A stretch of DNA of 54,406 nt, counting the filler, from Basidioascus undulatus (Eukaryota): the NCBI GenBank assembly GCA_000826855.1. It is 4 parts of 4 records of this genome, joined end to end, with 100 filler letters (N's around TTAATTAATTAA, not from the genome) between each part and the next. Parts side by side here need not be neighbours in the genome. Positions count along the whole stretch, not along the records: positions 13,634 to 27,165 come from JTLS01000807.1; 3 more parts are not named here. One strand, 5' to 3'. Under the pieces are notes generated by a model, which did not search any database, was not told the origin of the DNA, and saw only the letters and a list, made by a program, of their open reading frames with translations. Positions 4,770 to 44,243 of this stretch are shown in pieces (within the stretch, counting starts at the first letter, position 1; the number at the start of each line of letters is the position of its first letter). The position numbers and the translations under genes were made by a program.

Positions 4770-6443
4770 TCATACCCCCCTCGCAGCCCGCCCCGTAACC
4801 GCCTCCCACGTCGCCTCCCCCAGCTCCACGCCCCCCGCATGGTCAAAAAACCACACGCCGGGGAGCTTCAACGCGTGCCCATCAAGCTCGTCGTATCTTG
4901 CCTCGCCCTCCTCGATGCTCAGCGGCTCGCCCGCGTCGTCCAAGCCCGCCCTGTTCGCGAGCCACACACGCGGAGCGACGCCCCCGAGGGGGAAGATCGC
5001 CGCGACGGCAACGATGTATGGGCAGACGCGGAAGATGAGGGACGCGATGGAGGATAGGAGCTGCGAGTCTCGGGGCGTGTCGATGTACGAGAGTGAGACT
5101 ATGCCGAGCGTTGGGATGCTGTGCAGCGCGAGAGCGAACCGGATCTACCGCCCAGGATAGATTGAATCAGGATGCCGGTTGCATGTGAAGAGAGCCCACG
5201 CACCTGCTTTCGCAGCAGCTCCTCCACAGATTCCTGCTCCTCCGGCGCTGCCCCCGCGCCCTCCTCAGGCGCAGGCGGCTGCAAGTCGTGCGGATTGCCG
5301 ATGGCGATGCGCTCGAGGTTCGGCAGGTTCTCGTGCAGCGCGGAGATGAAGTCCTCGCTGTCGCCGTGGAAGAAGAAGGGGTTCGCGTAGCTCTCGATCG
5401 GGCGGGCGGACAGCAGCGTGAGGAGCGCGATCGCTTCGTCCAGGGGCTGGCCCCCGTGAGGGGGGATGATGTTGACGCGGGAGAGGGAGGGCGCGATGGA
5501 GGGCTCGCCGAGGAGCTCGGCGAAGTCGTCGGCTGAGGAGATCGTCCTCGGCCGTGAGCAGGAAAACGGAGAGATTACGGTAAACAGACTCACGCTGTCC
5601 ACTGAAAAACTCCAGCTCCGGCAGGGCGCGCTCCTGCAGCCCTTCCAGCGCCGTGCTCTGCTCCACATCATACTGCGGCACCTCGAGCGTCCTAATCCCC
5701 AGCGAACCATTCAAGCACGTCGCGAGCGTCTCAGGCCCCAGCACGTCCACCGCAACCTTGAGCCGCCTGAGCTGCGGCCCGAATGCAGGCAGGACGATGT
5801 CGCTCGAGAGGGGATCGGTGGACGTGATTCGCAGGTCCTCGAGGAGCGGCAGGGCAGGGAGCGAGTCGAGGAGCTGCTGGAGCGCGCGGAGGTCGTGCAC
5901 CGGCCAGTGCGCCAGTCGATGGAGGGTGAGCACGACCGCGCGCAAGCCCGTGAGCTGGTGGATCGCGGGAACGTGCTCGGCGGGATGGGCGACCTCCTCC
6001 TCCGGCGCTTGCAGCGCCTTGAGCGGGCCGATCGTTGAGTCCTCCGTCACTTCTTCCGGCGCAACTTGTTCCCTCCCGCTCGTCTCTGCCGGGCCTACCC
6101 GCAGGAGGAGCGTACGCACGCTGCCTCCCATGCCCGGCTCCTCGTCAATGAACTCTTTGAAGAGCCCTGCCGAGCGCCCTGCGAGCCCGGGGAGGACGAG
6201 TGCGACGCGGTGCATGAGAAAGGGACGGCAGACAATGTGGAGGACGCGGCAGATGCAGGAGAAGCTGTAGAGGTCGTTGGGGGTCGGCTGGAGGAGGGTG
6301 CAGATGTGGTTGAGGATGTCGACGGGCAGGCACGTGAGCGTCGGCGGGCCTGAGGAAGGATTGGGCATCGCGGGGGGCATCGGCGCGGGGATGCGATGCA
6401 TGAAGGTTTGGGCAGAGGAGCCTAGGTCGTGAAATGTAGACAT
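4770..6443 (-). CDS. F-box domain protein with LRR-like C-terminal region
   Basis: F-box motif LTCLPVDILNHICTLL...LYSFSCICRVLHIVCRPFL, followed by LxxLxL repeats. Two GT-AG introns (near 5.55 and 5.17 kb) join the ORFs to the stop at 4770. An alternative in-frame ATG lies at 6620. Confidence 0.75.
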
Positions 6444-9400
6444 CGCTGAAGAACTCGTTAGACGAGAGAAGGCAAGCGGCGGAACAGTGGGAAGCGAGGG
6501 AAGCGAGAACGCAGCGTGGGAATCGAAGACGCAGCCTAGAGCTTTCTTGCTCTTCCGGACTGTTTTCACGACCGACAATGGTGGGGCTGCAGCCGACTTT
6601 GAAGACTTTAGAAAGGCCATAAGCAAAATATTAAGGAGCTTGTGTACGACACACAACCAGTAGACCTACCCGCTGAGAGCCACCCAAAATTCCGGTACAA
6701 CGCACACGCGTCGACGCAGCCCTGTCCGGCAGCGGAGTCCAAACGCACCTGTCAGGTTTGAAAAGGGACATCCTTGCCGTATCGAGTGCTCAGGAATGCC
6801 GCCACTGACGAGGCCATTATCGCGGCCTCTTGCGTGCCGGGTGGTTACGGTCAGGTCGGCAGCCTGCTTGCAACGCAGTCTCGGTTTCATACAAAGACAC
6901 AGCTTGACCATTTCTCTCTGCATCCTTCTGGCCCTGTTATAGAAATCAAGCCCACCCGATCTCATGGGAAATGCTCAACATTGAGAGCCTTGCTCATTGC
7001 TATCATCCCCAACCTCCAAAAGCGCCCATCGGTGTCGCCTGCACCGCGGCACCCTACGCACCACCACCGCAATGCCTGCCGCTTTTTCTGGTTCGCCCTG
7101 GGTGCCGGAATGACCGCATGGGTCTTACACTCACTCGAAACCAACAATACGGGGCTCATCGATTGTCAGGCTGGTGTGGAAACTGGCCTGAGGGGCGGTG
7201 GGATGCTGTGGAGCAGGAGGTTTGGAGGAGGAGAGGCGAGTGGATGAAAGCAAGTGGGAGATCAGGTGAGGAGAGAATCGACTGAAACATGTATTGCTGG
7301 GTCGAGGCTGCAGTGTTCCCCAGGGAAAGAACATGTGCTGAAAAATGGAATGTGGTTGCTGAACTGAACTGGCTGCAAGGCGAAGCGGTTAACATGTGTA
7401 AACTGCACACATTGTCTGGGTATTTTTTTAGCCTGTGTTCAAGGTAAATCCGACCGTTACTTTCAACCGTGGACAAGGAAAAGAAGACGACTGAAGCCTC
7501 CATACTATCACAAGCTTGCATCAAAGACCCACAATGTCACCTGTTCAACCCTTCAACCCCTTTATTCGGTAATCCCACCTTTCTTCCCTATTGGTGGATG
7601 TAACAGACCACTGCCGCGAGGCCTTCCAGCCCAGCAGTGTGGGAGCTGCAGGAATGAGGCAGTGCCTGATGTGCCAGGTGGCTCTTCTCGATGCATTTCA
7701 GAGAGGAAGAGTGTGAGCACTGCAGTGGTCTTTGATGATATGTCAAACTATATCTAATTTAGTATAACCGAGAAGGCTTTTGAGGTCTCATTGACTGAAA
7801 GATTGAATTCTGTATAGGCGCGCGGGAAGGGGGAGCTCGTGGTGAAAGCATACAACTGAGCACCCGTCGCGATAAAAGCGAGAAAGTAGAATATCCTTAT
7901 CTGGCCGGGATGACCCTTAAGATGGCCCGAGGTCTCCATAGGCAGATAAATCATCCGATAACCATATCATCAATAGAGCTTGGTTGAATGAAACCGCAGA
8001 CTGGATAGGCGAGCGGTTCAAAGGTGACTCGAGTCAATCAGCTCTGACACCACACCGAAAAATGGGAAGTAGAAAGGAGGTTACTCAGCCGATAGGGACC
8101 AATACGGCGAGGGTTTGGGAGCGCTTTCCAGGCTGCGCCGTATCGAGATGTGATTATGCTGCGTACAACCGCCAGTTGCGTTCAGCTGTTCCAATGTTGC
8201 TAGCTGGAGATCGAGAAGATCATGTCCAAGATCATCAATGCCTTTGTGGAGTCTTGGTTGTTTGGTGTCACGATCGCCTACCCAAAGTTGGGATAATTAG
8301 CGAGCAAGCGCACCCAGAACAGAGGGGGTTCGAGCAGTCGCTCTGACAGCGCGGATCATCAGAGGCTCCCTGAGCATGCAACACAACACCCGCTCCAGCT
8401 GACCGCGACTACAAATCAACCACGGCAGCTGTGTAAGGGAGCGAGCGCCTACCCATGTTCCCCCTGCCCTGATGGGGAGACAGGAGTCAGACGGGATTGC
8501 TGTGCCGTCTGCGCTCCTACTCGCGTGCCAGTAGCCGTCTCTAATCGCCTCTCTTCCAGAGCGCGCTGCTAGTATGGGATTGAAGACTTTCACTTTCAAA
8601 TTGAGGGCAGACGAGGGCAGATGATGGTGGTAGAGAACGAAGCTGTGCGCAAGCGGTGGGCAGGGGCAGCTGTCGAGGGGGACCGTGTGACCCGCGTTTC
8701 AGCGTTCGAAAAAGCTTCCGCTGGCCCTCCTCGGTGACCCTTTAACCAAGATGAAACAACATATTGATCAGTTAATTTTTACGGTGTTAGAAAGGGTATG
8801 AAGACTTTTATTCTCTCCAGGTGGCGAAACAAAGCACCGAATCGGGTAGATAGACCGTCTTGAACTTGCTAAGCTGCCTGAGCACCGCCATCCTAAAGAG
8901 GTTGTTGAAACTTATATGCATTCTTTATGCTGTAAAGCGGAGGCCCTATGCGCTCGCTCGGTTAACGGATAATGCACATGTAATAGTTTTCGACACTCGA
9001 AGTGCACGGGGGTTCGAGGCGTAACGCACTTGAAAATGTGTTTCAGGCTTGACCATAATGTGGGGGCTTTCGCCTGGGAAGAAATTTCGGACAACTTGTC
9101 CGCGTTCATAGTTCTCCTCATGCTCGAGCTGCAGATCAGGTCATCGGCAAGACGTTCGAAACAACTCCCTCACACTGCACAACAATAGGTAGGACCATAC
9201 TTCCCTGGTTGTACGGCCTGCAGTCGCTGTGAAGATATCTAGCTCAGTTATAGACACTGTTTTGTGAGCGGGGTCTTAATAACATGTAGTTTTGGGGACA
9301 AAGTCCTTCGGGCCTGGTGAGTATCACTACTGTCATCTCCGCTCGCATCCATGTCACGATCAAACTTCCACAGCAACAACGTATACAGGGTAACTGGTTC

Positions 9401-10336: not shown

Positions 10337-12398
10337 ATGTCGCCCAATCCAGCCTCCGAGCCCGTCCCTCCAACACCTCCCACGCCCCTCGGCGTCCTCA
10401 CACCCACCGCATCGTCCACTTCTGCCCTCTCCTCCCTCGACAGCGAGTTCACAGCCGACGACGAGCACGCTGTCATGACCGACGAGTACACGGACGGCGA
10501 CGAGGATGAGACGTCCGCGCTTGTCGTCCCCATCCGCGGCCAGGACAGTCTGGACGAGGCGGATAGGGACGAGGTGCTCGGCACGCCCATGTTCAGGGAC
10601 GAGTTCCCGGACGAGGAGGAAGGGGGCACGGGCAGGGGAAGGAGGAGGAAAAGGAGACGCGATCCTTCGCTCAGGCAGGGGCTGCTTTCCGTCCCGCTCG
10701 CAGCAGCGAACGTAGCAAACTCGACCCTTGGTTTGGGTTTCCTGTGCGTCCACCTTTTATCCGTACATTATACGCTCTGCGAACTTATAATCTCCTACCC
10801 AGCGCCCTCCCTCACGCTCTCTCCCTCACGGGTCTCCCGCTCGGCATCGTCCTCATCTCCCTCACCGCGCTCCTCTCTGCCGGCGCGCATATCGTCCTCG
10901 TCAACACAGGCCGATATCTTGGCGTCCGCAAGTATGAGGATGTCGGGGGCGGCGCGCTCGCTGTCGGCGCGCGCGGCAAGGGCCTGACCAAGGCCGTCCT
11001 GCGCGTCATGATCGCGTTGAGCGGGTTGGCATTAATGGTTTCTTATCTACTTGGTTTGTTTCTTTCCGCTGTAACAACTCACAGCCATCACAGCCGCTCA
11101 TGAACTCTTGCATCAGAAATCTCCAACCTCCTTCACCCCGTCCTCTCGCACTACTCGCCCTCGCTGCCAACCCTCCACTCGCGTGCCTTCCTCACTCTCG
11201 TCCCCGCGCTGCTCATCATCCCATTCCTCTACCCACGCTCCTTCTCCTCGCGCCTCATCTCGCGCCTCTCTGTCGTCGCGCTCCTCACATACCCTGTCCT
11301 GCTCGGGCTCGTTGCCGCGCGTAGCACGCAGTACGGCGCCGGCGCTGCGTCTGTGTCTGCGTCTACGTCCGCGCTTTGGAGGCGCGCTGCGGGGGTGGAA
11401 GTGCTTAAGAAGCATGCCGAGACGAAGCGGGGCGTCTGGGGAGGAATCTGTGAGCGAGCTTCTGCCTTCTCATCCAATTGCTGCGTTACTGAGGAAAAGC
11501 AATGCTGATACGACTCGACGCTTCCAGCCCTCATGGCCTTCGCCTTCGCCTCCCAACAAACGACCTTTCCGCACCACCGCAGTCTGCGCAAGTCATCCCA
11601 GCGGACGTTCAACCTAACAGTCCTCATCGCGCTTTCTCTCACCTTCGCGCTCTCCCTCCCCTTCGCCATCGTCCCCTACCTCTCCCTCCATCCGCACCCA
11701 CTCCCGCAAGACATCTTCGCGCGCCTGCCCCTCCCGGGGACGGACGCAGGCGTCGACGCCGCGCACGTCCTCGCGGCCTTCGGGCTTTGGGCGGGCCTGC
11801 CCTTCGTCCTCGCCCCTGCGAGGGAGGCCGTGCTGCGCATGGGAAGGTGGGAGACCGAGCACGAGGAGGCCGGCACGGGCGCGCGCGTCGCTGTTTCGGC
11901 GGCGATGTGGCTCGTCGCCGTCCCGAGCGCTGTGCTGGGCGGCGTGCGCGCGAAGGACGTCTGGCAGAAGGTCGCGATGCTGCTGGGTCTGGCGTTGGGG
12001 TACCTGCTTCCCGGTGCGTAGCGTTGCCGTCTTTGTGCATAAGCGTCGCTCGGTGCTGACTTGACTTTGCGGCTTGCAGCGCTCTTCTTCATCATCCTCC
12101 ACCACGTCCGCCGTCCGCGCGCAATTGTCATCTCCGCCTCTGATGGGCTCGCCTCGGCCGACGCGCTCCTCGCGCACAAGGAGCGGCAGCTCCAGCGCCG
12201 CCGCACAGGCCGTCGGTTGTGGTTCGTCTCAACAATCTCCCTCCCCCCATCCCCTCTCTTCCCAGGTTAACAGAGATGCTAATGCCTGGTCGGGACCGGA
12301 CACGCAGGCAGGACCTCTTCATCTTCACGCTCATGCTCCCCGTCGGGCTCGTCACCGTCGTATGGCAGGTGTACGCGCTCTTCCGGCACGGGCGGTAG
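10337..12398 (+). CDS. Transmembrane amino-acid transporter (Aa_trans/AVT-like family)
   Basis: Acidic N-terminal tail, ANVANSTLGLGFLALPHAL..TGLPLG, YEDV, MAFAFASQ, multiple TM helices and LGYLLPALFFI. Five GT-AG introns splice in frame to TAG 12396-12398. Confidence 0.85.
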
Positions 12399-14334: not shown

Positions 14335-15633
14335 TCAGCTCGCTACGTTAATAGATGGGTCCCAATGCTCCATGATAAAACTTCCCACTTGTCACTGACC
14401 AGCCGGGGCGCTGATGCTGTTCAGACAACCTCGGCACCCGCTCGCAGTGGATCCACCCCAAGACGTACGAGGCCATTGTTGAAGCGCACCCTCGATCAGT
14501 CTCCTTACATTCAAAACCTTCTGTACGTTATCTTATGGGTGCTTTTTAAAGTCTCGGCTGGTCCTCATGCTTCGCCCACACAATGGACAATGAGCTGGAG
14601 CTGAAACCGTGGAGGTGCGTTACTGCCCCCTGTCCCCCTCAAACCTCCCCACTCTTCCTCTTCCACCTCTGCACTTTTCCCCACTCATCAACCCTCTGCA
14701 ACTTTTGCTGCTTCCCCCAGCCACACCACATTCCTCCCCGCCAGGTTCAGGGATGACAGCCGCAACAACGCCTTCGCGAAGCCGTTCGAGGAGAAAGAGA
14801 AGACGCGCGGGTTGGAACCGACTTGGGTGGACAGGGAGGACAGGCGGGTGAAGGAGAAGATTGAAGTTGAATGAGGGGAAGGGGGAGGATGGGTCTTGAG
14901 TTTGAACAAGAGTGGCGTAACGGATTGGTTCCTGTCGTATTTCATGAGTGTGTGTATCGGACCGCGGGTGCGGAACTGAGCAAGGGCTCGTATTCTGGTC
15001 GACTGTACAAAGAAGGTTTTAAAATTTCGACAGACCTCCTTCGTAACTGTTTGTACATCGTCCAGGAGCTCTACGAGAACTGCAAAGGTATGCAGTCCGC
15101 GCAGCGTGAGTTGGAGCCAGCGCGTCTTGTCGGCAACCTCGCCTTCAAGATGCATCTTTGTTCGTCCAAGGCCTGTGTTCATCAATGACGTGGAAGGACC
15201 CCTCTTACTCCTCTTTACTAAACGTGGAAAGAACTCTTACATCCCACTTCGAAGTACATCTACAGCAAGAAGTACAAGAGGAACAACTGCCGAATGGAAA
15301 TTACCTACACAGGGCGACTCACTTCTCAAATCTGTTCTCGGTAAAGCTCTTTATCGAGACCTCCCGAGCAGGCTCTCCTCTAATCCATACATTCACCCAG
15401 GTGGAGCTCCAGTTCATATGAACGGCGCGGAAAGGGAGACCAACGTTCTCAGCCAAGGCTTTGCAGTTTCGGCGGCCTGCGGGAACACGCCTTTCTCACG
15501 CCCAGCCAAAGAAAAGTTGCAATTTAAATAAGATTACATTCAGTGTGCAGGGGAGAGTAAGTGTGCGTGGGATTCAGTGAAGCAACAAAAGTCCCCTCTA
15601 GCTTAGTGTCCAAACGAGCCCCCTTCGATGCAT

Positions 15634-16763
15634 TTAGTGCTCCTTCTCCCCCTTGCCATTGCCGTGAGCCTGCTCCAACTTCTGCAGCTCCTTCCGCCGC
15701 TCTTCGTCGGGAAGCACCGCCATCCAAGAGTGTTCCGGGTTCTCGGCCTGCGACAGACATGTCCCTACAGCTATCAGCACGTAGCCGCTGCGGATACTGT
15801 GCACGGCAGGACTTGCCTCGCTGAGCTCGTCTTCGCCCTTGAAGTGAAGCGTCGTAAGCCCGGCGGTGGCGATAAGCATGGCAATTGTAGTGCCTGCAAA
15901 GTTGAGGTACCTGCATAAGCGAGCGAAGTGAGACGTGAAGGGAAGACTACGTACCCTGAGCCCACATACGAGCGTGCTGTCCCGGTCGCACATGTCAGTC
16001 AAAACGCTCAGTAACAGAATGGAAGATGTGAAAATGGCATATCTGGACGAGCTTCTGTGGGAATGACTGGTACCGGTCGCGGAAGATGGTCAAGCTCGAA
16101 ACCGCCATGGCAGCGACCCAGCTATGATAGACCGCAGTCAGCGTTCGCTCGCGGTAATCAAACAGACAAGGAGCGATAGAAGACTTGCCTTCCCGCAACA
16201 ATCTTGTATCGGTGCTCCTTCGCCCACTTGATAGCCTTGTCCTTCGTCCCCATCGCCTCCCACGCCTGCCGCTCCCGCTTGGCGATGGCCTCCATCGCCG
16301 CAGCCCCTTCGTCGCGCCATTGCGCCCTCTCAAAAGCCCGGCTGTATCCGAAGATGTATTCAGCTCCTAATCTGGCATTGGCGAAAAAGCTCGCCAGACC
16401 GAGTTACCCGCTATTCTCAGCATTCGTAATAGCACACGCTGCAGTCAGCATCGTGAGCCCGAAGGCCTTGGCGGGCGGCGTGAGCTGACGCCAACCAGAC
16501 CAGGTTCTGCTGAGGATGGCCGCCGTAGCCAACCCGCTGAGGGCCACAGATACTTCGATCAGTGCAAGGCCTTCGATGAAGATTATGCGACGACTCACCT
16601 GCCCAAGCCCACCGCCGCTCCCTTCAAACCCCCGCGAATAACCGCGTCCTGGTAGGCGTTCACCTCTTCCTGCTCAGACCCGAACGCAGCTGATGTCAGT
16701 GTGCTTCCGGATCGAAACCTCGCGTGTGAGTGTGCGTTGACTTACGGCGGAAACGATCTTCAT
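15634..16763 (-). CDS. RCF2: Respiratory supercomplex factor 2 (HIG1-domain mitochondrial protein)
   Basis: Eight exons splice to MKIVSAEEVNAYQDAVIRGGLKG...WAKEHRYKIVAGSWVAAMAVS...QSFPQKLVQARMWAQGTTIAMLIATAGL..., matching the Rcf2 N-terminus and the HIG1 motif. The model uses 2 GC-AG introns and 1 AT-AC intron. Confidence 0.9.
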
Positions 16764-19511
16764 TGCTGGGTCTTTCGGAGGGTGGTCGAGAATATGCGGA
16801 AGGTTGAGTTACTAAGATCAATTGCAGGAACGGATAGGAGATTGACAGAGGGGGAAAGATGGGAAGACGAGGAGGTGAGACGGAGCTGAGTGGGGCGAGG
16901 CAAACTCACGTGCGAGCGCTAAAGTGAGGTCATCTTCTGTTCTTTATCGCAGGTACCGCTTTCCCCCTCCTTTTCCACAACCGCATTTAGTAAAGAGTGA
17001 ACGGCTACCAAAGGCCAAGGAGAAAGTCAGCCGCTACACAGTGCGAGGTGCCGCAGTGACTGTAGCCGGCCGGGGATGAGGGAACGATGCGTGCCATGGG
17101 TGCTGGTCACTTCACGAAGCGCACTGGAGCGTCTTCCCTTAACATTGTCATCACGTCCTTTTTTTCCCGGGGAGAGCCAGTCACCGTTGTAGGTCATTTT
17201 GGCGCAGGCCGTGTTATCGCTGTATTAACTTGCTGGGTTCTCTGTGAGCGCATTGCGAGCTCGAAAGTGCTATGCAGTGGCTCCCATGGTCAGCTGAGGT
17301 AGTTTCGACACTTTCTGTGAACTTGTACCCGGTCATAGCGACGTATTTCGAGAAACACGTGTGTGTGTTTCGAGAGAAGCTGCGGAACAGCACATCATCG
17401 AGACGAGCACGCGCGACTGGACGGCGCTCGCGCTGGCGTTTACCTCATCCCACCAACCCGCGTTCCGACTGACGACTGACTCGCATATTTTAAGACGGTT
17501 ATGTTCTCAGACTTGTGCGTCTGTTCTGCAACCACTTCTTTGCGGTCCGCTCACTCGAAACGTTCCATACCACCGGCTCCCGGGCGGTCGTTCAACCTTC
17601 GTGCTCCCTTTGCTGATCCCGGCGGGACGCCGCCTCATGGCACGGCACGACCATACGTCAGAAACGGACAACCATTTCGGCTCCGTTCTGCTAGTTGGGT
17701 CCCTCCTGGTGGACAGCGCTGGCATGCTTATCATCGGCACCTGTCGGGCACGGCATATTTGGTGGTCGGTAAGTTCAGCGGTCTGGGTGTTCTGAAGCCC
17801 TTGTTACTGCGGTCTCACAGACGCGCCGCTTGTTCCTGCAGGTATCCTGGTCATGTCTCTGGCAAGCGGCTGGAGGCCGGCGCTGAATTCGCTGCTTCTT
17901 GCGTCAGTCAGCACTAACAAGCGCGGTAAGAGAGCCATTGGCGTTTTTCCTCTTTAGAAAGAAGGGGGATCTGACGGACCCTCTTTATTCTGCAGCTGAG
18001 ATTCTTGCCGCTGCAAACCTGTGCGACCAGTTCAGTGGCGCACATTCCCCGCTCATTGTAAGCTGTCAACATATGCGGTAACTCTCGTTCATATTCTCAC
18101 GACATGCCTGACCAACAGTTTGGTGCTCTCTATCCGGCGACCGTTGCGCGCATGCCCCGGCTCGTCTTCCTATGCCAATCAGTCTTGACACTCTTGGCTG
18201 TTATCCAGTGCTAGCTGCCGTGGGGTTATCGGCCAAGCGTGGCGTCAGGCTGATTTGAGGGGTTTCTGAGTGTATTGTGAAGCGTTGTAATATAATGTAC
18301 CTTGCTTGCTTCTTGATGTTCGCCGTATTTGGCGTTCTGGAGTGTCCGCATTCACCGACTGCAAGGCTACTTCCCGAGCGGGACGCCGCCATGAGCCGTG
18401 GCGCGGCTCTGCACGACGTCGTCGTCCTCTTCTGAGAGGGATCTCAAAACCGACAGCCTAAAGGAATGAAGGAGAGTCTGCGGCAGGGGAAGGGCAAACT
18501 TGCTTCAAGCCGGGCTCGCCTAGCAACTCGTCGACGTGAACAGTTTGGATTTGAGAGATAAGGTGAGTCTATTGATGCTCAGGAGAGGAAAGTTGTCGTA
18601 CACCTCTAAACTCTGTTACAAGAATACCAGCCCACGGAAAGGACTGCTTGCGCTGCAAGTTGCCACAGATGCGGGCAAAGGAGGTCTCGACAACCAGAAA
18701 AATGCCGGCGATCCATGAAGAGGTCCAAACCCCTTTCGTGGACGGTACTTTTCTCGAAAGTCACTTTCATGGGAGCAGAAAAAACCAATACATCAGACAC
18801 TGCTGCTGCCCTTCCTGAACCGGAACCGCAGACTCGCACGTCGGTGCTCTCGCCTCCTCGATCCCCCCTTCCTGTCGCAATTCGTGGCTTCTCCATATCG
18901 TTACCACACATCCGGGAAATGTTAAGAATTTCTAGGGGCGACGAGACCAGGAATGACACAGGGCATGGCACAGGCACCCGCACAAAGGTCTGCAAGAACT
19001 TCAACCGCAAGCTCGAAAAAGGAACGGGTATACAACAAACAGCCAACCAAGCGCAAAATACGAATAGCAGAAAACAAAACAACAACACATACGCAAAAAG
19101 ATATCAAACCGTCCGGGCAGCGCATAGCGCTCGAGGCGGGTAGCGACGTAAGAACCACAGCCGCGCCTCAACAGGTGTACGTCAAGAGGGTCCATAACGA
19201 GGGGAGTACATCAAGCGAGCGCAGGGTGGAGACGTGAGACGTAGCAGACAGGTCGCAGGACATGGGCGTGAAGTGATACGAGTTACGAGGGTACAAGACC
19301 GAGCGACCGACTGAACAGTCCAACAAGCAGGGGTACAGGAGACGAGAGTGTTCTCGAAAACAACAAAGAGAAACCGAGGGTGCAATGGGAATGAAAGAAA
19401 CGGTGCTCGGGGGGAAAGAGTTCGGATGTGGATTGAGAAGCGAGATGGGTTGAATGGAGCGAAGTGTACGGGATAATGCTTGAATGAGAAGTGTGGGGAT
19501 GCAAATGCGTA

Positions 19512-27165: not shown

Positions 27166-27265
27166 NNNNNNNNNNNNNNNNNNNNNNNNNNNNNNNNNNN
27201 NNNNNNNNNTTAATTAATTAANNNNNNNNNNNNNNNNNNNNNNNNNNNNNNNNNNNNNNNNNNNN
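27166..27265. other. Artificial contig spacer
   Basis: N44-TTAATTAATTAA-N44. Confidence 0.98.
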
Positions 27266-38216: not shown

Positions 38217-39945
38217 CTGTGGGAGATGCGCGGGCTTGGGGCGGTTAGCGAGGGAGGGAGCGGCGGGACGCACTTGTCTTGCGCTTGCACGAAGATGTGC
38301 AGATGCGGCTCGAAGGATGAGGACATGGTGGTGTTTGCGACGGAAGGGGCGAGCGGCGTGGAGGAAAGAGTGCGGACGAGGTCGGGAAACTGGCGGCGGG
38401 CCCTCGGTTTTCAATAAAGTAAACGCAAAGCTGGAACAAAAGGAAGGGACGCACCGAGACCCCGTACTTCCGCCCCATCTCGCGCTCAAACTCGACCGTC
38501 GCGCTCAGGCTCTCGAGCAGCAAGCTGACAGTCAAAGTTGGCGCCGCACGCTCGAGGACCGTGCGGAGGTCGTCGCTGTGTCCCCGACCAACACTTCCAG
38601 TTCCCAGCACGACAGAGAAGGAGGAAGAAGGCACATACCGCGTGATCCCTGCAAAGTGCACGACCAGCCGCTGCCCGACCGCCCATGACTCGGGCCACAC
38701 TTGTGCGGACGCCTGCTGGTCGTCGTGCGCCTTGAGGACGCGGCGGAACCATGCGAAGCGGCGGGGGAGGTTGTCGAGCTGGCCGGCCTGGGGAGGGGTG
38801 AGTGTGAGAGGGGGAAGGGGAGGAGGGACGAGGGAGGGGGATGCACGCACTTCGTCGGTTGGTCGGAAGATCCGGCGGTAGTCTCTTAGGAGGTGGGAGG
38901 TATACCAATCGACTACCTGTGTCCTGTTCTCTCCCCTCCCTCAGCTTCTTATTCCCCGCCTCTCCTCGCCAAGCCACGCACCTCGCGTCCTCCCCCAGCG
39001 CATCCACCACGCCCGCCGCGTCCCTGACCCTCCTCCTCTCGCGCTCCGCGCCCTCCTTCTCCGGCCCACCACCCACAAACGCCCTAAACTCCCCCAGGAC
39101 CTGCTCCCTCAGGCGGGCCTGCACGGCCTGGCACTCCCCCAAAACCTCTGCGATGCGCTCGACGCGCGCGAGGGGCTTAAAGTGCGCGCTCAGCTGGCGG
39201 ACGGCCTTGAGTGTTTCTGCGGCGGGGGCGTAGGACGCGGAGGCGGTCTCATGCGAGAGCTGGGTGGTCGCGTTCACTTCGGGGCGGGGCAGGGGGTGAG
39301 GGGGAGGGACAAGGAGGAGAGGAAGGGAGGAGGCAGGGGAACTGACCTAGCATCTGGAATCGCTTGAGCGCAAGCATGGATGTCCGCAGATTCGTCTTTG
39401 CGTTGTCGAGCGCCTTGATGTCCCGCGTCATCTCGCGCACGATCGCCTCGGACTCGGCGGCCTTTTCGCGGATGCGGGCGACTTGGGCGAGGAGCTCCTA
39501 CGATCCTCCGAGGACGCAGATCCCCCACGTCAGCATACGGGGTGGATTGGGGAAGATATTTAGAGAGGATTAGAGAGGATAAAGAGTGAATGGCCCACGC
39601 ACCGCAATCAACTCCTGCAAGACCTGCACTCGCTGCTCATCATGCTCCGCGGCGAGCTCGACCCTCAGCCGGCGCGTCTCGTCCTCGAGTTGGCGGAGGT
39701 GTGTGCGCAGCTTGGACTGCACAGCCTCGGCTTGGGATATGGATGATTCTGTTCCCAGTCCATCCCATCCCAACCGATAATTGGATCTGAATCAAACAGA
39801 GAAGGATGAGAGAATGTCGCTCACCGTCCGGGAGAAGCGCATTGATGACCTGCACCTGGTCGAACCCCGCGAGCGCATCGAGCGGGTCTGGCTGCAAGTC
39901 GAGTGCGCCCGTGATTTGCGATACAAGCTCCGGCGGCAGCGCCAT
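38217..39945 (-). CDS. VPS53: GARP complex subunit Vps53, N-terminal half only (3'-truncated)
   Basis: Clean splicing gives REKAAESEAIVREMTRDIKALDNAKTNL..SM.ALKRFQMLVNA, LRDYRRIFRPTDEAGQLDNLPRRFAWFRR and SSSFEPHLHIFVQAQD. After that the sequence becomes antisense HoxX. Confidence 0.85.
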
Positions 39946-40235: not shown

Positions 40236-40793
40236 ATGTCTCTCGCGAGTGTGTTCGCAGGCCAGGGCAGCGCAGACTGCGGGCCCTCCTCCGCCCTCCA
40301 GCAGTTCTCCAAGCAAGTCGACCGCGACCGGGGCGCACAGCAGGATCGGTTCGTGCCACAGGCGGGGCCGTCCCAATGGGTGTGTATTCAAATCCCAGTA
40401 TCCTCCGTTTGGTCACATGCTCATCTCATTGTCCTCGAAGTCCTTCCGCACCACCACCCCCGCCGGACCAAGCACGCCCGACCCCACAGCCCAGCACTTC
40501 TTCTCGCCCTCTCTTCCCCATCCGCACGCTCTCCACCACCACCCACACCCCCACCACCCGCCACAGCCCTTCGACCTCTCCTCCCTCAGCCAGAGCCTCT
40601 CCCCGAGCCCGGCCCCAGACCTCGCCGCCGCCGCCGCCCCACCAGCAGCAGCTTGGGCGTCCGACTTTCTCTCCTCCCAGAAGCAGCACGCGGAGGGCCC
40701 CATCAGCAGGGACGAGGCGGCGCAGTTGGGGCGGATATTCGAGAGTGCGCAGGCCAGCGGGTTCAGGCAGGGTGAGTCGGAGATGCAAGGGAG
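40236..40793 (+). CDS. PEX5: Peroxisomal import receptor Pex5-type N-terminus, partial
   Basis: MSLASVFAGQGSADCGPSSALQQFSKQVDRDRGAQQDRF with the conserved N-terminal Cys, and a WASDF (WxxxF) motif. Divergent from VPS53; cut by the contig end. Confidence 0.78.
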
Positions 40794-40893
40794 NNNNNNN
40801 NNNNNNNNNNNNNNNNNNNNNNNNNNNNNNNNNNNNNTTAATTAATTAANNNNNNNNNNNNNNNNNNNNNNNNNNNNNNNNNNNNNNNNNNNN
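40794..40893. other. Artificial contig spacer
   Basis: N44-TTAATTAATTAA-N44. Confidence 0.98.
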
Positions 40894-41726: not shown

Positions 41727-44243
41727 ATGGCGACCGCCAACGCCCCCACAACGCTGGACGAGCTCAAATCCCTTCTCCAGCATGATACCAAGGTCAAAGT
41801 GGCCGGTGCGTGCTCTGCCTTCTTCTTGCCCCTCAGTCGCTTATCGCGGGGGTGGGGCAGGTATCGACGGTATGCTGACTGCAGTCAAAGGAGGGAGAGA
41901 AAGCGAAAGAGGATGGTGCTGATGTGGTGAACGGGAGACGGCAGTCGATGGTGTCCTCCGCGGAAAGATCATGAGCAAGTCCAAGTTCCTGAGCGCTGTC
42001 AAGGGCGATGTGCGTCCCTCGTTGTTGGGATGGATGGGACAAGGTAGGGGACTGATTGGCGTGGGTGGGTGGAAAGGGCTTCGGCTTCTGCTCCGTCATT
42101 TTCGGGTGGGACGGCTTCAACGACGAGACGTACTATCGCGAGCTGCTCATGTCCGTCCCTGCCTTCCCTCCTCTCTTGCCACCCTTTCCCACCCTCTTCC
42201 CCTTCCCCCACTTCACCTTCTCCCCTCGCCCTCTTCCCCCTCTCAAATCGCTCACGCTCCCCCGCAGTTCTAACGCTGCCAACGGCTACCGCGACATCCT
42301 CGCGTCCATCGACCTCCAGACCTACCGACGGATCCCCTGGGAGGACAACCTCCCCTTCTTCCTCCTCTCCTTCCTCGACCCCGACACGCGCGAGCCCATC
42401 CCCGTCTGCCCGCGTGGGACGCTGAGCCGCGTGCTGCAGCGCGCCAGGGAACTGGGCGGGTGGGAGCCGATGGCGGGGGCGGAGTACGAGGTGGGTCCCC
42501 CTCTTCCCGCCTACCTTCCTTCCTCATACCTTGACACCCTTCCCCCTTCCCCTTTTACTTTCTCTCCTCTGCATCTCGTACTTTTCTCCTTCCGGGGAAA
42601 GAAGGTGGACTGACAGGTGGTGATGACGCCCAGTATTTCCAATTCCGCGAAACCGCCTCCTCCCTCGCGTCCAAGTCCTTCTCGCCCGCGGCGCTCGAGC
42701 CACTCACGCCGGGGATGCACGGCTACTCGCTCATCCGGCCGCACCTCAACCAGGCGTACTTCCACGCGCTGTTTGATCGTGCGCTCGAGTTTGGGATTGA
42801 TGTTGAGGGACACCGTGCGTCCTCCCTCACCCCTTCCCACCACACTTCCTGCCTTCTTCCTGCTCCCGCTTGCTTTCTCTCTACCTTTCTCTCCTCCTCT
42901 TCTCCCTGCTCCCTTCTCCCTGATCTCCTCAGGTGGCGGATCATGGAAGGCTGATTGAAGTCGCATGGGGGTTGGATCAGACACCGAGACCGGCCCGGGC
43001 GTCTTCGAGACCGCCCTGGCGTACACGTCCGCGCTGCGGATGGCGGACAACGCGATCCTGTTCAAGTACCTCGCCAAGTGTGTGGGCATGGAGCACGGCG
43101 TGCTCCCGAGCTTCATGGCGAAGCCGCATGAGGGGCTGCCGGGGTGCTCGGGGTGCGTTCTGCGTCTTCCTCAATCCCCCCTCCCTCTCTCTCTGTCACT
43201 TTGTCCTTTCGGAGTAGAGTAGTAGAGACGCAGCGCAGGGCAGACGCTAATGAAAGGAAGGGGACGGATCCAGACATATCCACGTCTCCCTCCGCGACCC
43301 ATCCACAGGGCGCAACATCTTCGCCCCGCGGGATGAGGACGTGAAGAGCGGGAAGGGCCGCGAGGGGGCGCAGTATGATGACGTTCGGTGTGTCTTTCTA
43401 CCTTCTCCTCCTCTCCTCTCCTCAGGCGAAGGTGGGATGGCAAAGCTGACTCGTGGACGGGGCCGAGTAAGGTTCATCTCCCAGGAGGCGGAATGGTTCT
43501 TGGCGGGACTGCTGGAGGGGCTGGCGGACGGTGCGTCGGATGAAGAAAGAAGCAAGAGGCAAGAAGGAAGAGGAACGTGCTGATTGTGGTGGAGGGGAGA
43601 TCAGTCGTGCCTTGCTTTGCACCGACTATCAACAGCTACAAGCGGCTTGTGGCGGGGGAGGTGCGTTGAGCGCGTTGGAGATGGTGTTGAAGAACGAATG
43701 GGCGATAGGACGCTGACGCATTCCGTCCTTCTCTTCTCTCTGCCCACCATCAGAGTATGTGGGCCCCCAACCGCTCGTCCTACGGGTATGATTCCCGGTC
43801 CGTCTCGATCCGGATCATCTCGCCTCCCTCGGTACCCCCCTCCGCCACGCGCTTCGAGGTCCGCGTCCCGGGTGCAGACGTACAACCCTATTTTGCGCTC
43901 TCCGCGATCTTCGCGCTCGGCCTAGACGGGATCGCCCGCAAACTACCCCTCCCGCACGCGCCGGGCCGGGAGCCGGCGAAGGGGCTCGCGACGAGCTTGG
44001 GGGAGGCGACGAGGGATATGGGACGCCAGGGGAGCGCTGCGAGGCGGGTACTGGGACAGGAGTGGACGGATCACTTTGTGGGGACGAGGGAACATGAGGT
44101 GCGGAAGTGGGAGAGCGCGGTTACGGATTGGGAGCGTACGTGCTTGTTCTTCATACCCCTCCACCCCTTAGCTCGGAAGGGACGCTGCGTTGACTGACTT
44201 GGAGGTTGGGCGAGCAGTGCGCAGGTATATGGAACTTGCGTGA
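41727..44243 (+). CDS. Glutamine synthetase-like protein (GSI/FluG-C-type catalytic domain)
   Basis: KVKVAGIDVDGVLRGK, GFGFCSVIFGWD, GAEYEYFQF, EGHHTETGPGVFE, FMAKPHEGLPGCSGHIHVSL, APTINSYKRL, FEVRVPGAD and VTDWELRRYMELA*. Eleven introns, with a 9-nt micro-exon. Confidence 0.92.

Follow-up and report, generated by a model that had tools for sequence, protein, structure and literature searches.

A probable AT-AC intron of the U2 type in the RCF2 gene of Basidioascus undulatus

Intron 5 of RCF2

The stretch of Basidioascus undulatus DNA analysed in this study (54,406 nucleotides (nt); assembly GCA_000826855.1), hereafter the window, carries on its minus strand at 15634..16763 an RCF2/HIG1 type 2 gene of eight exons and seven introns with a product of 219 amino acids. 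The fifth intron starts with AT and ends with AC, and it is probably a real spliceosomal intron of a functional RCF2, which would be excised at these AT...AC borders by the major (U2-type) spliceosome. The segment (minus strand, 16042..15974) is 69 nt long, its first letters are ATATGCCA and its last letters are GACAGCAC. It is flanked by ...CTCGTCCAG upstream and GCTCGTATGTGG downstream, and it interrupts the motif Q-x3-Q-x-R-x3-Q between Q and A (CAG/ATATGC...CTGAC...CAC/GCT). A sequence-only reading of the same DNA had proposed that the motif QKLVQ-ARMWAQG is split by this segment, and both the sequence and the coordinates were found to be exact. As that reading had also stated, retention of the intron brings an in-frame TGA, which was located at 15997-15995, overlapping CTGAC. 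The AT-AC excision has no slack, since the exon base next to the donor and the final base of the intron are not the same. QKLVQARMWAQ is regenerated by AT-AC excision only, and homology with other RCF2 proteins argues strongly for the AT-AC product.

Gene model and identity of RCF2

The gene model was built on the minus strand of 15300-16900, and the exons were assembled by coordinates. The coding region runs from the start ATG at 16763-16761 to the stop TAA at 15636-15634, and exons 1 to 8 are 18, 71, 129, 153, 79, 19, 77, and 114 nt long, respectively. The seven introns and the exons on either side of intron 5 are as follows.

16745-16670, minus strand: intron 1, GTAAGT...CAG, 76 nt
16598-16537, minus strand: intron 2, GTGAGT...CAG, 62 nt
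16407-16342, minus strand: intron 3, GTAACT...CAG, 66 nt
16188-16122, minus strand: intron 4, GC-AG, AAG/GCAAGT...CTGAC...ATAG, 67 nt
16043..16121, minus strand: exon 5, 79 nt, codes for (S)WVAAMAVSSLTIFRDRYQSFPQKLVQ, the first HIG1 helix
16042-15974, minus strand: intron 5, predicted AT-AC, ATATGC...CAC, 69 nt, phase 0
15955..15973, minus strand: exon 6, a 19-nt micro-exon, codes for ARMWAQ(G)
15954-15894, minus strand: intron 6, GT-AG, GTACGT...TTGCAG, 61 nt
15816-15748, minus strand: intron 7, probable GC-AG, GAG/GCAAGT...CTGAT...CGCAG, 69 nt, in frame without a stop

Apart from the question of intron 5, the exons are open, and their collinearity with homologs extends from residue 1 as far as the HSW motif. 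The GC fractions by codon position in the exons are 0.61, 0.49, and 0.78, and those of the introns are 0.46-0.59. The donor of intron 3 (16402-16407, minus strand), GTAACT, has C at +5, where G is the usual base; it is the only GT donor ahead of an in-frame TAA, and the product matches the spacing of the homologs (AENSGRAFERAQW).

On full-length profile similarity, the gene is assigned to RCF2/HIG1 type 2. An exhaustive HMMER search with exon 4 gave seven proteins at E up to 0.001, two of which were full-length or nearly so. Searches from those two proteins gave 49 and 449 significant matches, and among the 120 listed of the 449, most carry PF04588; the names of the homologs include "Respiratory supercomplex factor 2" and HIG1 domain-containing protein. 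A profile hidden Markov model was built from 159 homologs of at least 170 residues, with two that have retained introns left out, and the spliced AT-AC product scores 270.9 bits against it over profile positions 3-218. The best pairwise identity of the window protein to any homolog in the searched protein collections is 43-47% over about 200 residues. When single exons were searched against the PDB, the sole family matched by exon 4 was yeast Rcf2 (6t0b_m and 6lul_B; E about 0.05), and exon 5 matched S. pombe Rcf2 (8c8q_L; E = 1.6), aligned as ...PQKLIQA at residues 136-142. A single PDB match of the C-terminal reading frame was dismissed as a chance match. Four single-exon or read-through pieces, all very short, gave no match to HIG_1_N (PF04588) at E up to 10, and a word-index search with exon 4 among longer proteins gave no relatives.

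The seat of Rcf2 is cytochrome c oxidase. In S. pombe Rcf2, R143 and Q147 of the QRRQ-type motif are reported to touch Asp254 of Cox3, and the first two positions of the motif are described as not fully conserved across HIG1 type 2 proteins (PMC9935853). Under the AT-AC model, the QRRQ-type motif Q-x3-Q-x-R-x3-Q is present in the window protein as Q-KLV-Q-A-R-MWA-Q, and micro-exon 6 codes for its R and the Q after it, two residues with full conservation among HIG1 type 2 proteins. This micro-exon is flanked by the 69-nt AT-AC intron 5 and the 61-nt GT-AG intron 6.

Reading frame and homology at the intron 5 borders

Every in-frame, stop-free GT-AG, GC-AG, AT-AC, AT-AG, and GT-AC excision at intron 5 was enumerated. 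Four excisions with plausible sites leave the ARMWAQ micro-exon as well as the first HIG1 helix intact, and all four combinations are in frame because the two donors are 6 nt apart and the two acceptors are 3 nt apart. Their products and scores are given below.

16042-15974, minus strand: AT-AC excision, 69 nt, QKLVQARMW, 270.9 bits
16042-15977, minus strand: AT-AG excision, 66 nt, QKLVQHARMW, 263.0 bits
16048-15977, minus strand: GT-AG excision, 72 nt, QKLHARMW, 253.0 bits
16048-15974, minus strand: GT-AC excision, 75 nt, QKLARMW, 252.9 bits

The sequence-only reading had set the AT-AC excision against a GT-AG excision with a poor donor, GTCCAG, that changes the product to QKLHAR. This description of the GT-AG option stood, and the in-frame AT-AG and GT-AC combinations had been overlooked.

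The pattern QK-x4-R[MVIL]xAQ is matched by 161 of 172 homologs; all 161 have exactly four residues at this place, with VQ invariant, and the 11 residues QKLVQARMWAQ are identical in 18 homologs. Among the remaining proteins, two (P0096 and P0158) have the same spacing with one flanking letter changed, seven are fragments that stop short of the site, one has its start within it, and one (P0055) has a 22-residue insert at the intron 5 site, of which the first residue is V and the last is Q. The three-residue spacing that GT-AG excision would give was found in 0 of the 172. The spacing of the AT-AC product is thus that of 161/161 motif-bearing homologs, and this product scores 17.9 bits above the GT-AG product against the 159-homolog profile, which supports the earlier choice of AT-AC. 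The AT-AC borders are probably those used in splicing. Minor isoforms in which the Cox3-docking motif is longer by one residue, or shorter by one or two, may also occur.

Splice signals and the proposed mechanism

The signals in and around intron 5 are listed below.

16037..16045, minus strand: 5' splice site CAG/ATATGC, A at +1 and C at +6
15994..15998, minus strand: candidate branch site CTGAC, putative branch A at 15995
15974..15979, minus strand: 3' end ACAG-CAC; the AG at 15978-15977 adds one H, and the AC at 15975-15974 gives the family-consensus product
16043..16048, minus strand: rival donor CTC/GTCCAG, consensus match at GT alone, no G at +5

The donor had been described as a U2-type site with A at +1, and its sequence agrees with that description: the exon side is the usual CAG, and the TATG at +2 to +5 agrees with fungal donors of the GTATGT type. 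As read directly from the sequence, CAG/ATATGC follows the major-type donor consensus except at +1. Donors of the GTATGT, GTACGT, GTGAGT, GTGCGT, and GTGCGC forms occur in RCF2 and elsewhere in the window. CTC/GTCCAG is the only GT donor that preserves both the frame and the first helix. The proposed U2-type branch site CTGAC is present at 15998-15994, and its candidate A (15995) is 21 nt away from the final base of the intron, with the upstream AG at a distance of 18 nt. CTGAC, CTGAT, CTGAA, or CTCAA occurs within the last 30 nt of each of the six remaining RCF2 introns, and the length of intron 5 (69 nt) and its branch distance (21 nt) are in line with the gene's other introns (61-76 nt).

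The consensus of the U12-type branch box is TCCTTAAC. Neither a TCCTTAAC-type nor a TCCTT-type box occurs in the last 30 nt of intron 5, TTTGACTGACATGTGCGACCGGGACAGCAC; no TCCTTAAC-like box lies 10-20 nt from the 3' end, and the sole branch-like motif is the U2-type CTGAC at 21 nt. The donor ATATGCCA differs at +5, +7, and +8 from the U12-type donor consensus, /ATATCCTT, as quoted in PMC5029451. By these signals, the donor and the branch site of intron 5 are U2-like and not U12-like. A search with Rfam at the gathering threshold found no small nuclear RNA (snRNA) of any kind in the window, although 54 kb says little about the genome.

The host lineage was examined with a tree inferred from 48 RCF2 proteins by a quick maximum-likelihood run, in which four Mucoromycota served as the root. 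The window protein falls within the basidiomycete part of the tree with moderate support (83 and 84 in the Shimodaira-Hasegawa-like approximate likelihood ratio test), apart from Ascomycota (96, starred) and the Mucoromycota outgroup (99, starred). Its branch is fairly long (0.78), and it has no starred close kin. A Dikarya origin of the locus, based on this one short protein, is likely. In a survey of more than 3000 eukaryotic genomes, Ascomycota and Basidiomycota are reported to be without convincing minor introns (PMC10639083); from the tree and that survey, we infer that the host lacks the minor spliceosome.

In the proposed mechanism, U1 and later U6 would take CAG/AUAUGC as an ordinary fungal 5' splice site save for +1, and U2 would pair with the CUGAC branch site. 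At the second catalytic step, the non-Watson-Crick pair between the two terminal bases of the intron would be A-C in place of the usual G-G, and ligation would be directed by the A at +1 to the AC at 15975-15974 and not to the AG three bases upstream. Ligation of ...QKLVQ to ARMWAQG... would then regenerate the conserved motif through which Rcf2 docks onto Cox3. The G-G pair of the intron ends is reported to be replaceable by A-C in exon ligation (PMC11585973). In yeast, an engineered /AT-AC/ intron is described as being spliced, and an endogenous AT-AC intron nested in RPL30 as confirmed by reverse transcription-polymerase chain reaction (PMC5029451). Intron 5 is read as a major-spliceosome intron because of this A-C pair and the yeast precedents; its splicing and the efficiency of splicing, the acting spliceosome, and the branch point are predictions.

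Intron position in relatives

Metagenome contigs were scanned with the degenerate pattern QK-x-VQ, a gap of 40-70 nt, and AR-x-x-AQG. Because the first Q had to be encoded by CAG and the intron had to be followed by GCN, the scan may have passed over further orthologous introns. Four loci were obtained, and one of them, L004, is a true RCF2 gene; among proteins, it is best matched by P0030 of Microbotryum lychnidis-dioicae. The other three (L001-L003) are uninterrupted, unrelated reading frames and were set aside as chance pattern matches. At the intron 5 site, L004 reads ...SFAQKLVQ/GTGCGT..(64 nt)..TTCAG/ARMVAQGLT..., with an identical site and phase and with canonical ends. The comparison with an orthologous intron that the sequence-only reading had called for is thus available from this distant basidiomycete locus, in which the intron at the identical position is GT-AG.

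The L004 gene (1250-2250, minus strand) has at least three introns in the coding region and an intron-like segment just upstream. A further GTGCGT intron has the position and phase of window intron 4 (GC-AG), and a GTGGGT intron lies near window intron 7; all three coding introns near or at window introns 4, 5, and 7 are GT-AG. Since L004 has no intron after AQG, window intron 6 is not common to the two genes. The insert of P0055 has the form expected of a retained in-frame GT...AG intron at the intron 5 site. Four proteins (P0055, P0018, P0056, and P0051) are seemingly mis-predicted, with in-frame retained introns or frames starting within an intron beside QKLVQ/ARM, and this region is evidently error-prone for automatic annotation.

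Judged from these sequences, basidiomycetes have had an intron at the intron 5 position for long, or at least repeatedly, and its ends are normally GT-AG. Intron 5 looks like an old GT-AG intron with changed ends because L004 has GT-AG at the identical position. It most likely descended from a GT-AG intron by alteration of both end bases, with A replacing G at +1 and C replacing G at the final position; the order in which they changed is a reconstruction. As a speculation, the tandem ACAG-CAC is perhaps a former CAG-CAG tandem acceptor, by which an intermediate would have been kept in frame.

Alternative explanations

Several points weigh against AT-AC excision. The prior is low: AT-AC introns make up about 0.014% in Ganoderma, and those of the U2 type are about 0.003% in five animal and plant genomes, according to PMC11590231 and PMC1557818. 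ATATGC departs at +4 and +6 from the metazoan U2-type /ATAAGT. The layout AT+RNG[TC]...CTRAY...YAC, with a length of 45-110 nt, occurs 17 times on both window strands, and the other 15 starting dinucleotides give 10-43 occurrences. The resemblance of intron 5 to splice signals is by itself at chance level, and the case for the intron therefore rests on frame and homology. All four excisions are in frame, and the first AG past the branch site, 3 nt upstream of the AC, is a possible competitor. A variant product might be tolerated, given the first two QRRQ positions that are not fully conserved. With the closest homolog just 43-47% identical, the comparison of the A...C pair stops at distant relatives.

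The competing AG gives the first alternative, in which the AT donor is joined to the first AG after the branch site (16042-15977, 66 nt, AT-AG) and the product, QKLVQHARMWAQG, has an extra histidine. This excision is in frame, its AG (15978-15977) is the first downstream of CTGAC at 18 nt from the branch A, and its profile penalty is merely 7.9 bits. The curated Ganoderma annotation is reported to contain 21 AT-AG introns against 13 AT-AC (PMC11590231), a further point against AT-AC excision. On the other hand, five residues between QK and R are found in 0 of the 163 homologs with a readable, uninterrupted site, and the placing of a C exactly at the junction of the consensus protein would be a coincidence. 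As described in PMC5029451 and PMC11585973, A at +1 with a final G breaks the end pair needed for exon ligation, and A-C repairs that break. We consider AT-AG excision improbable.

Use of the GT at 16048 with the AG at 15977 (GT-AG, 72 nt; QKLHARMWAQG) would need no unusual ends, and GT-AG introns are reported to be about 97.6-99% of fungal introns (PMC7072748, PMC11590231). The excision is in frame and stop-free, and H-x-R-x3-Q retains the two fully conserved residues of the motif. Nevertheless, it is very unlikely: the donor CTC/GTCCAG fits the consensus at GT alone, without G at +5, and the product drops the invariant V and alters the invariant Q, a form seen in 0 of the 161 homologs. The product lies 17.9 bits under that of AT-AC excision, and the orthologous intron in L004 begins after CAG, not CTC.

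It is likewise hard to credit that the intron is not productively removed, either because this RCF2 is a decaying or redundant copy or because the intron is mostly retained and the protein ends ahead of the second HIG1 helix. AT at +1 belongs to the classical mutations that cause splicing defects, non-GT donors are present in three of the gene's seven introns, and the branch in the tree is fairly long (0.78) and without a close relative. Against decay, none of the eight exons contains a stop, their order follows that of the homologs (270.9 bits over profile positions 3-218), and a strong third-position GC bias is maintained. The last base is the exact C that compensates A(+1), which is not expected of random decay.

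An assembly or base-calling error that hides true GT...AG ends is highly improbable. The window contains 264 masked N, so that parts of the record are hidden, but an error here would require two independent changes (G to A and G to C) exactly at end bases 67 nt apart, the changes would have to yield precisely the known compensating pair, and the surrounding sequence has no frame problems. Finally, the probability of a U12-type AT-AC intron removed by the minor spliceosome is close to nil: the AT-AC ends and ATAT at +1 to +4 would suit it, and one survey has U12-type snRNA matches in a single basidiomycete, from which no conclusion is drawn there (PMC7072748), but the donor and branch region differ as described above, and the protein groups with Basidiomycota, in which minor introns and most minor snRNAs are reported absent (PMC10639083).

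GC-AG introns and donor usage in the window

Non-GT donors are found in three of the seven RCF2 introns (GC, AT, and GC), and both GC donors are full AG/GCAAGT. That intron 4 is a true GC-AG intron is well supported by comparison with the homologs: the sole in-frame GT-AG alternative inserts seven residues between IVAG and SW and scores 16.4 bits lower. Intron 7 is a probable GC-AG intron, less certain than intron 4. Its retention costs 5.8 bits, other in-frame options exist in the poorly conserved tail, and the distance between the second helix and the HSW motif agrees with that in the homologs only with intron 7 removed. At the Ganoderma rate of 1.85%, the chance of two GC-AG introns among seven is about 0.7% (binomial arithmetic by hand).

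Three of the seven RCF2 introns are non-GT, introns 4 and 5 are GT-AG in L004, and intron 7 lies near a third such position; these observations raise the idea that the major spliceosome of this lineage may routinely accept non-GT donors, and the AT-AC intron, placed in the Cox3-docking motif of a gene from a hypoxia family, could also be a slow, regulated splicing step. This idea is rather unlikely. If it were true, AT-AC and GC-AG introns would be expected genome-wide far above the roughly 0.01% and 2% of other basidiomycetes.

Among the GT-hexamers counted on both window strands, GTGCGT is the commonest (57) and GTAAGT is rare (8). GTGCGT is the donor of plausible introns (e.g., at 12014, 13370, 39602, and 52110) and of two L004 introns, and donors in this genome seem to be of the GC-rich GTGCGT or GTGAGT types rather than GTAAGT. 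Five window-wide counts were not used as evidence. A signal-only scan did not separate GT-AG (48) from control dinucleotides (11-46), and a scan that joined open reading frames with a filter on third-position GC gave 122 for GT-AG against 73-171 for the controls, again with no separation. A codon-score segment finder recovered five of the eight RCF2 exons, segment chaining produced GT-AG solutions in 35 of 52 adjacent pairs, with many spurious pairs, and among window hexamers GTAAGT (8) was not enriched over GCAAGT (33) or GGAAGT (35).

Neighbouring reading frames

Neighbouring reading frames in the window match Gln-synt_C (87.8 bits) and Vps53_N (30.8 bits), and weak matches below the Pfam cut-offs were obtained for F-box-like, LRR_6, Aa_trans, and Formyl_trans_C. 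The neighbouring frames are of ordinary fungal content and are unrelated to intron 5:

43709-44194, plus strand: reading frame
38489-39346, minus strand: reading frame
5268-6665, minus strand: reading frame
11509-12018, plus strand: reading frame

Runs of the 264 N of the window, which are masked or unresolved sequence, appear as X in the frames at about 27218-27265 and 40790-40850.

Significance

Gene predictors that allow only GT-AG and GC-AG introns would truncate RCF2 or damage its Cox3-docking motif at this locus, and the curators of Ganoderma report the same prediction problem (PMC11590231). If the AT-AC reading is true, intron 5 is a natural case, at a required position, of the A-C end pair replacing G-G that is known from yeast genetics, and its host would be a fungus in which the major spliceosome alone is expected. 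Given GT-AG in a distant basidiomycete, the locus would record a two-step change of both intron ends, and the ACAG-CAC tandem suggests a route for an in-frame intermediate. Current understanding is unchanged by this case, which adds one well-defined example.

Comparison with known AT-AC introns

AT-AC introns are a rare class in fungal annotations (PMC7072748), and PMC12230235 names AT-AC among accepted intron types with nothing further. The "AT-AC" of PMC3091305 and PMC10108026 is a polyketide-synthase domain string, not an intron class. Literature searches, none aimed at that exact question, turned up no description of an AT-AC intron in RCF2. U2-type AT-AC introns are given as 24 of 610,067 introns in five animal and plant genomes in PMC1557818, in which a hypothesis is also mentioned that some fungal xylanase genes have introns of this type.

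The type II AT-AC introns of animals, such as those of human SCN4A and SCN5A (PMC1557818), are like intron 5 in having AT...AC ends with an otherwise major-type donor and branch site. They are removed without the minor spliceosome, as intron 5 would also be. The consensus of the animal introns is /ATAAGT, whereas intron 5 has /ATATGC with a fungal, GTATGT-like flavour. Unlike the animal cases, intron 5 is short (69 nt), fungal, located beside a 19-nt micro-exon, and known from sequence alone.

In yeast, both the engineered /AT-AC/ intron (Parker and Siliciano 1993, as cited in PMC5029451 and PMC11585973) and the RPL30 case have A(+1) rescued by a final C, as is proposed here. S. cerevisiae is reported to be a Dikarya fungus without the minor spliceosome, and the host of the window is probably in the same position. 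Of the two yeast cases, one is an artificial double mutant and the other arises within another intron as a side product of 1-2% (PMC5029451), whereas intron 5 would be the sole productive route.

U12-type AT-AC introns (/ATATCCTT...TCCTTAAC...AC) share with intron 5 the end dinucleotides and ATAT at +1 to +4. They differ from it at donor positions +5, +7, and +8 and in their branch box, which is absent from intron 5, where the branch-like motif is at 21 nt.

A further known setting is that of Ganoderma lingzhi, for which the manually curated annotation of about 92,000 introns is reported to contain 13 AT-AC, 21 AT-AG, 49 GT-AC, and 1706 GC-AG introns; for one of the AT-AC introns, whose gene contains a GC-AG intron as well, confirmation by polymerase chain reaction and Sanger sequencing is described (PMC11590231). 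Like the predicted intron 5, the rare AT-AC intron there belongs to a conserved basidiomycete gene, was overlooked by automatic prediction, and has a GC-AG intron beside it. The gene and the organism differ, and intron 5 adds GT-AG at the identical position in a distant relative. On its sequence features, intron 5 belongs to a kind that is already documented in vertebrates, yeast, and Ganoderma, according to PMC11590231, PMC5029451, and PMC1557818. What appears particular to intron 5 is that it would provide the sole productive route to a motif under strong conservation, that its position is occupied by GT-AG in a distant relative, and that it lies in a gene with two predicted GC-AG introns.

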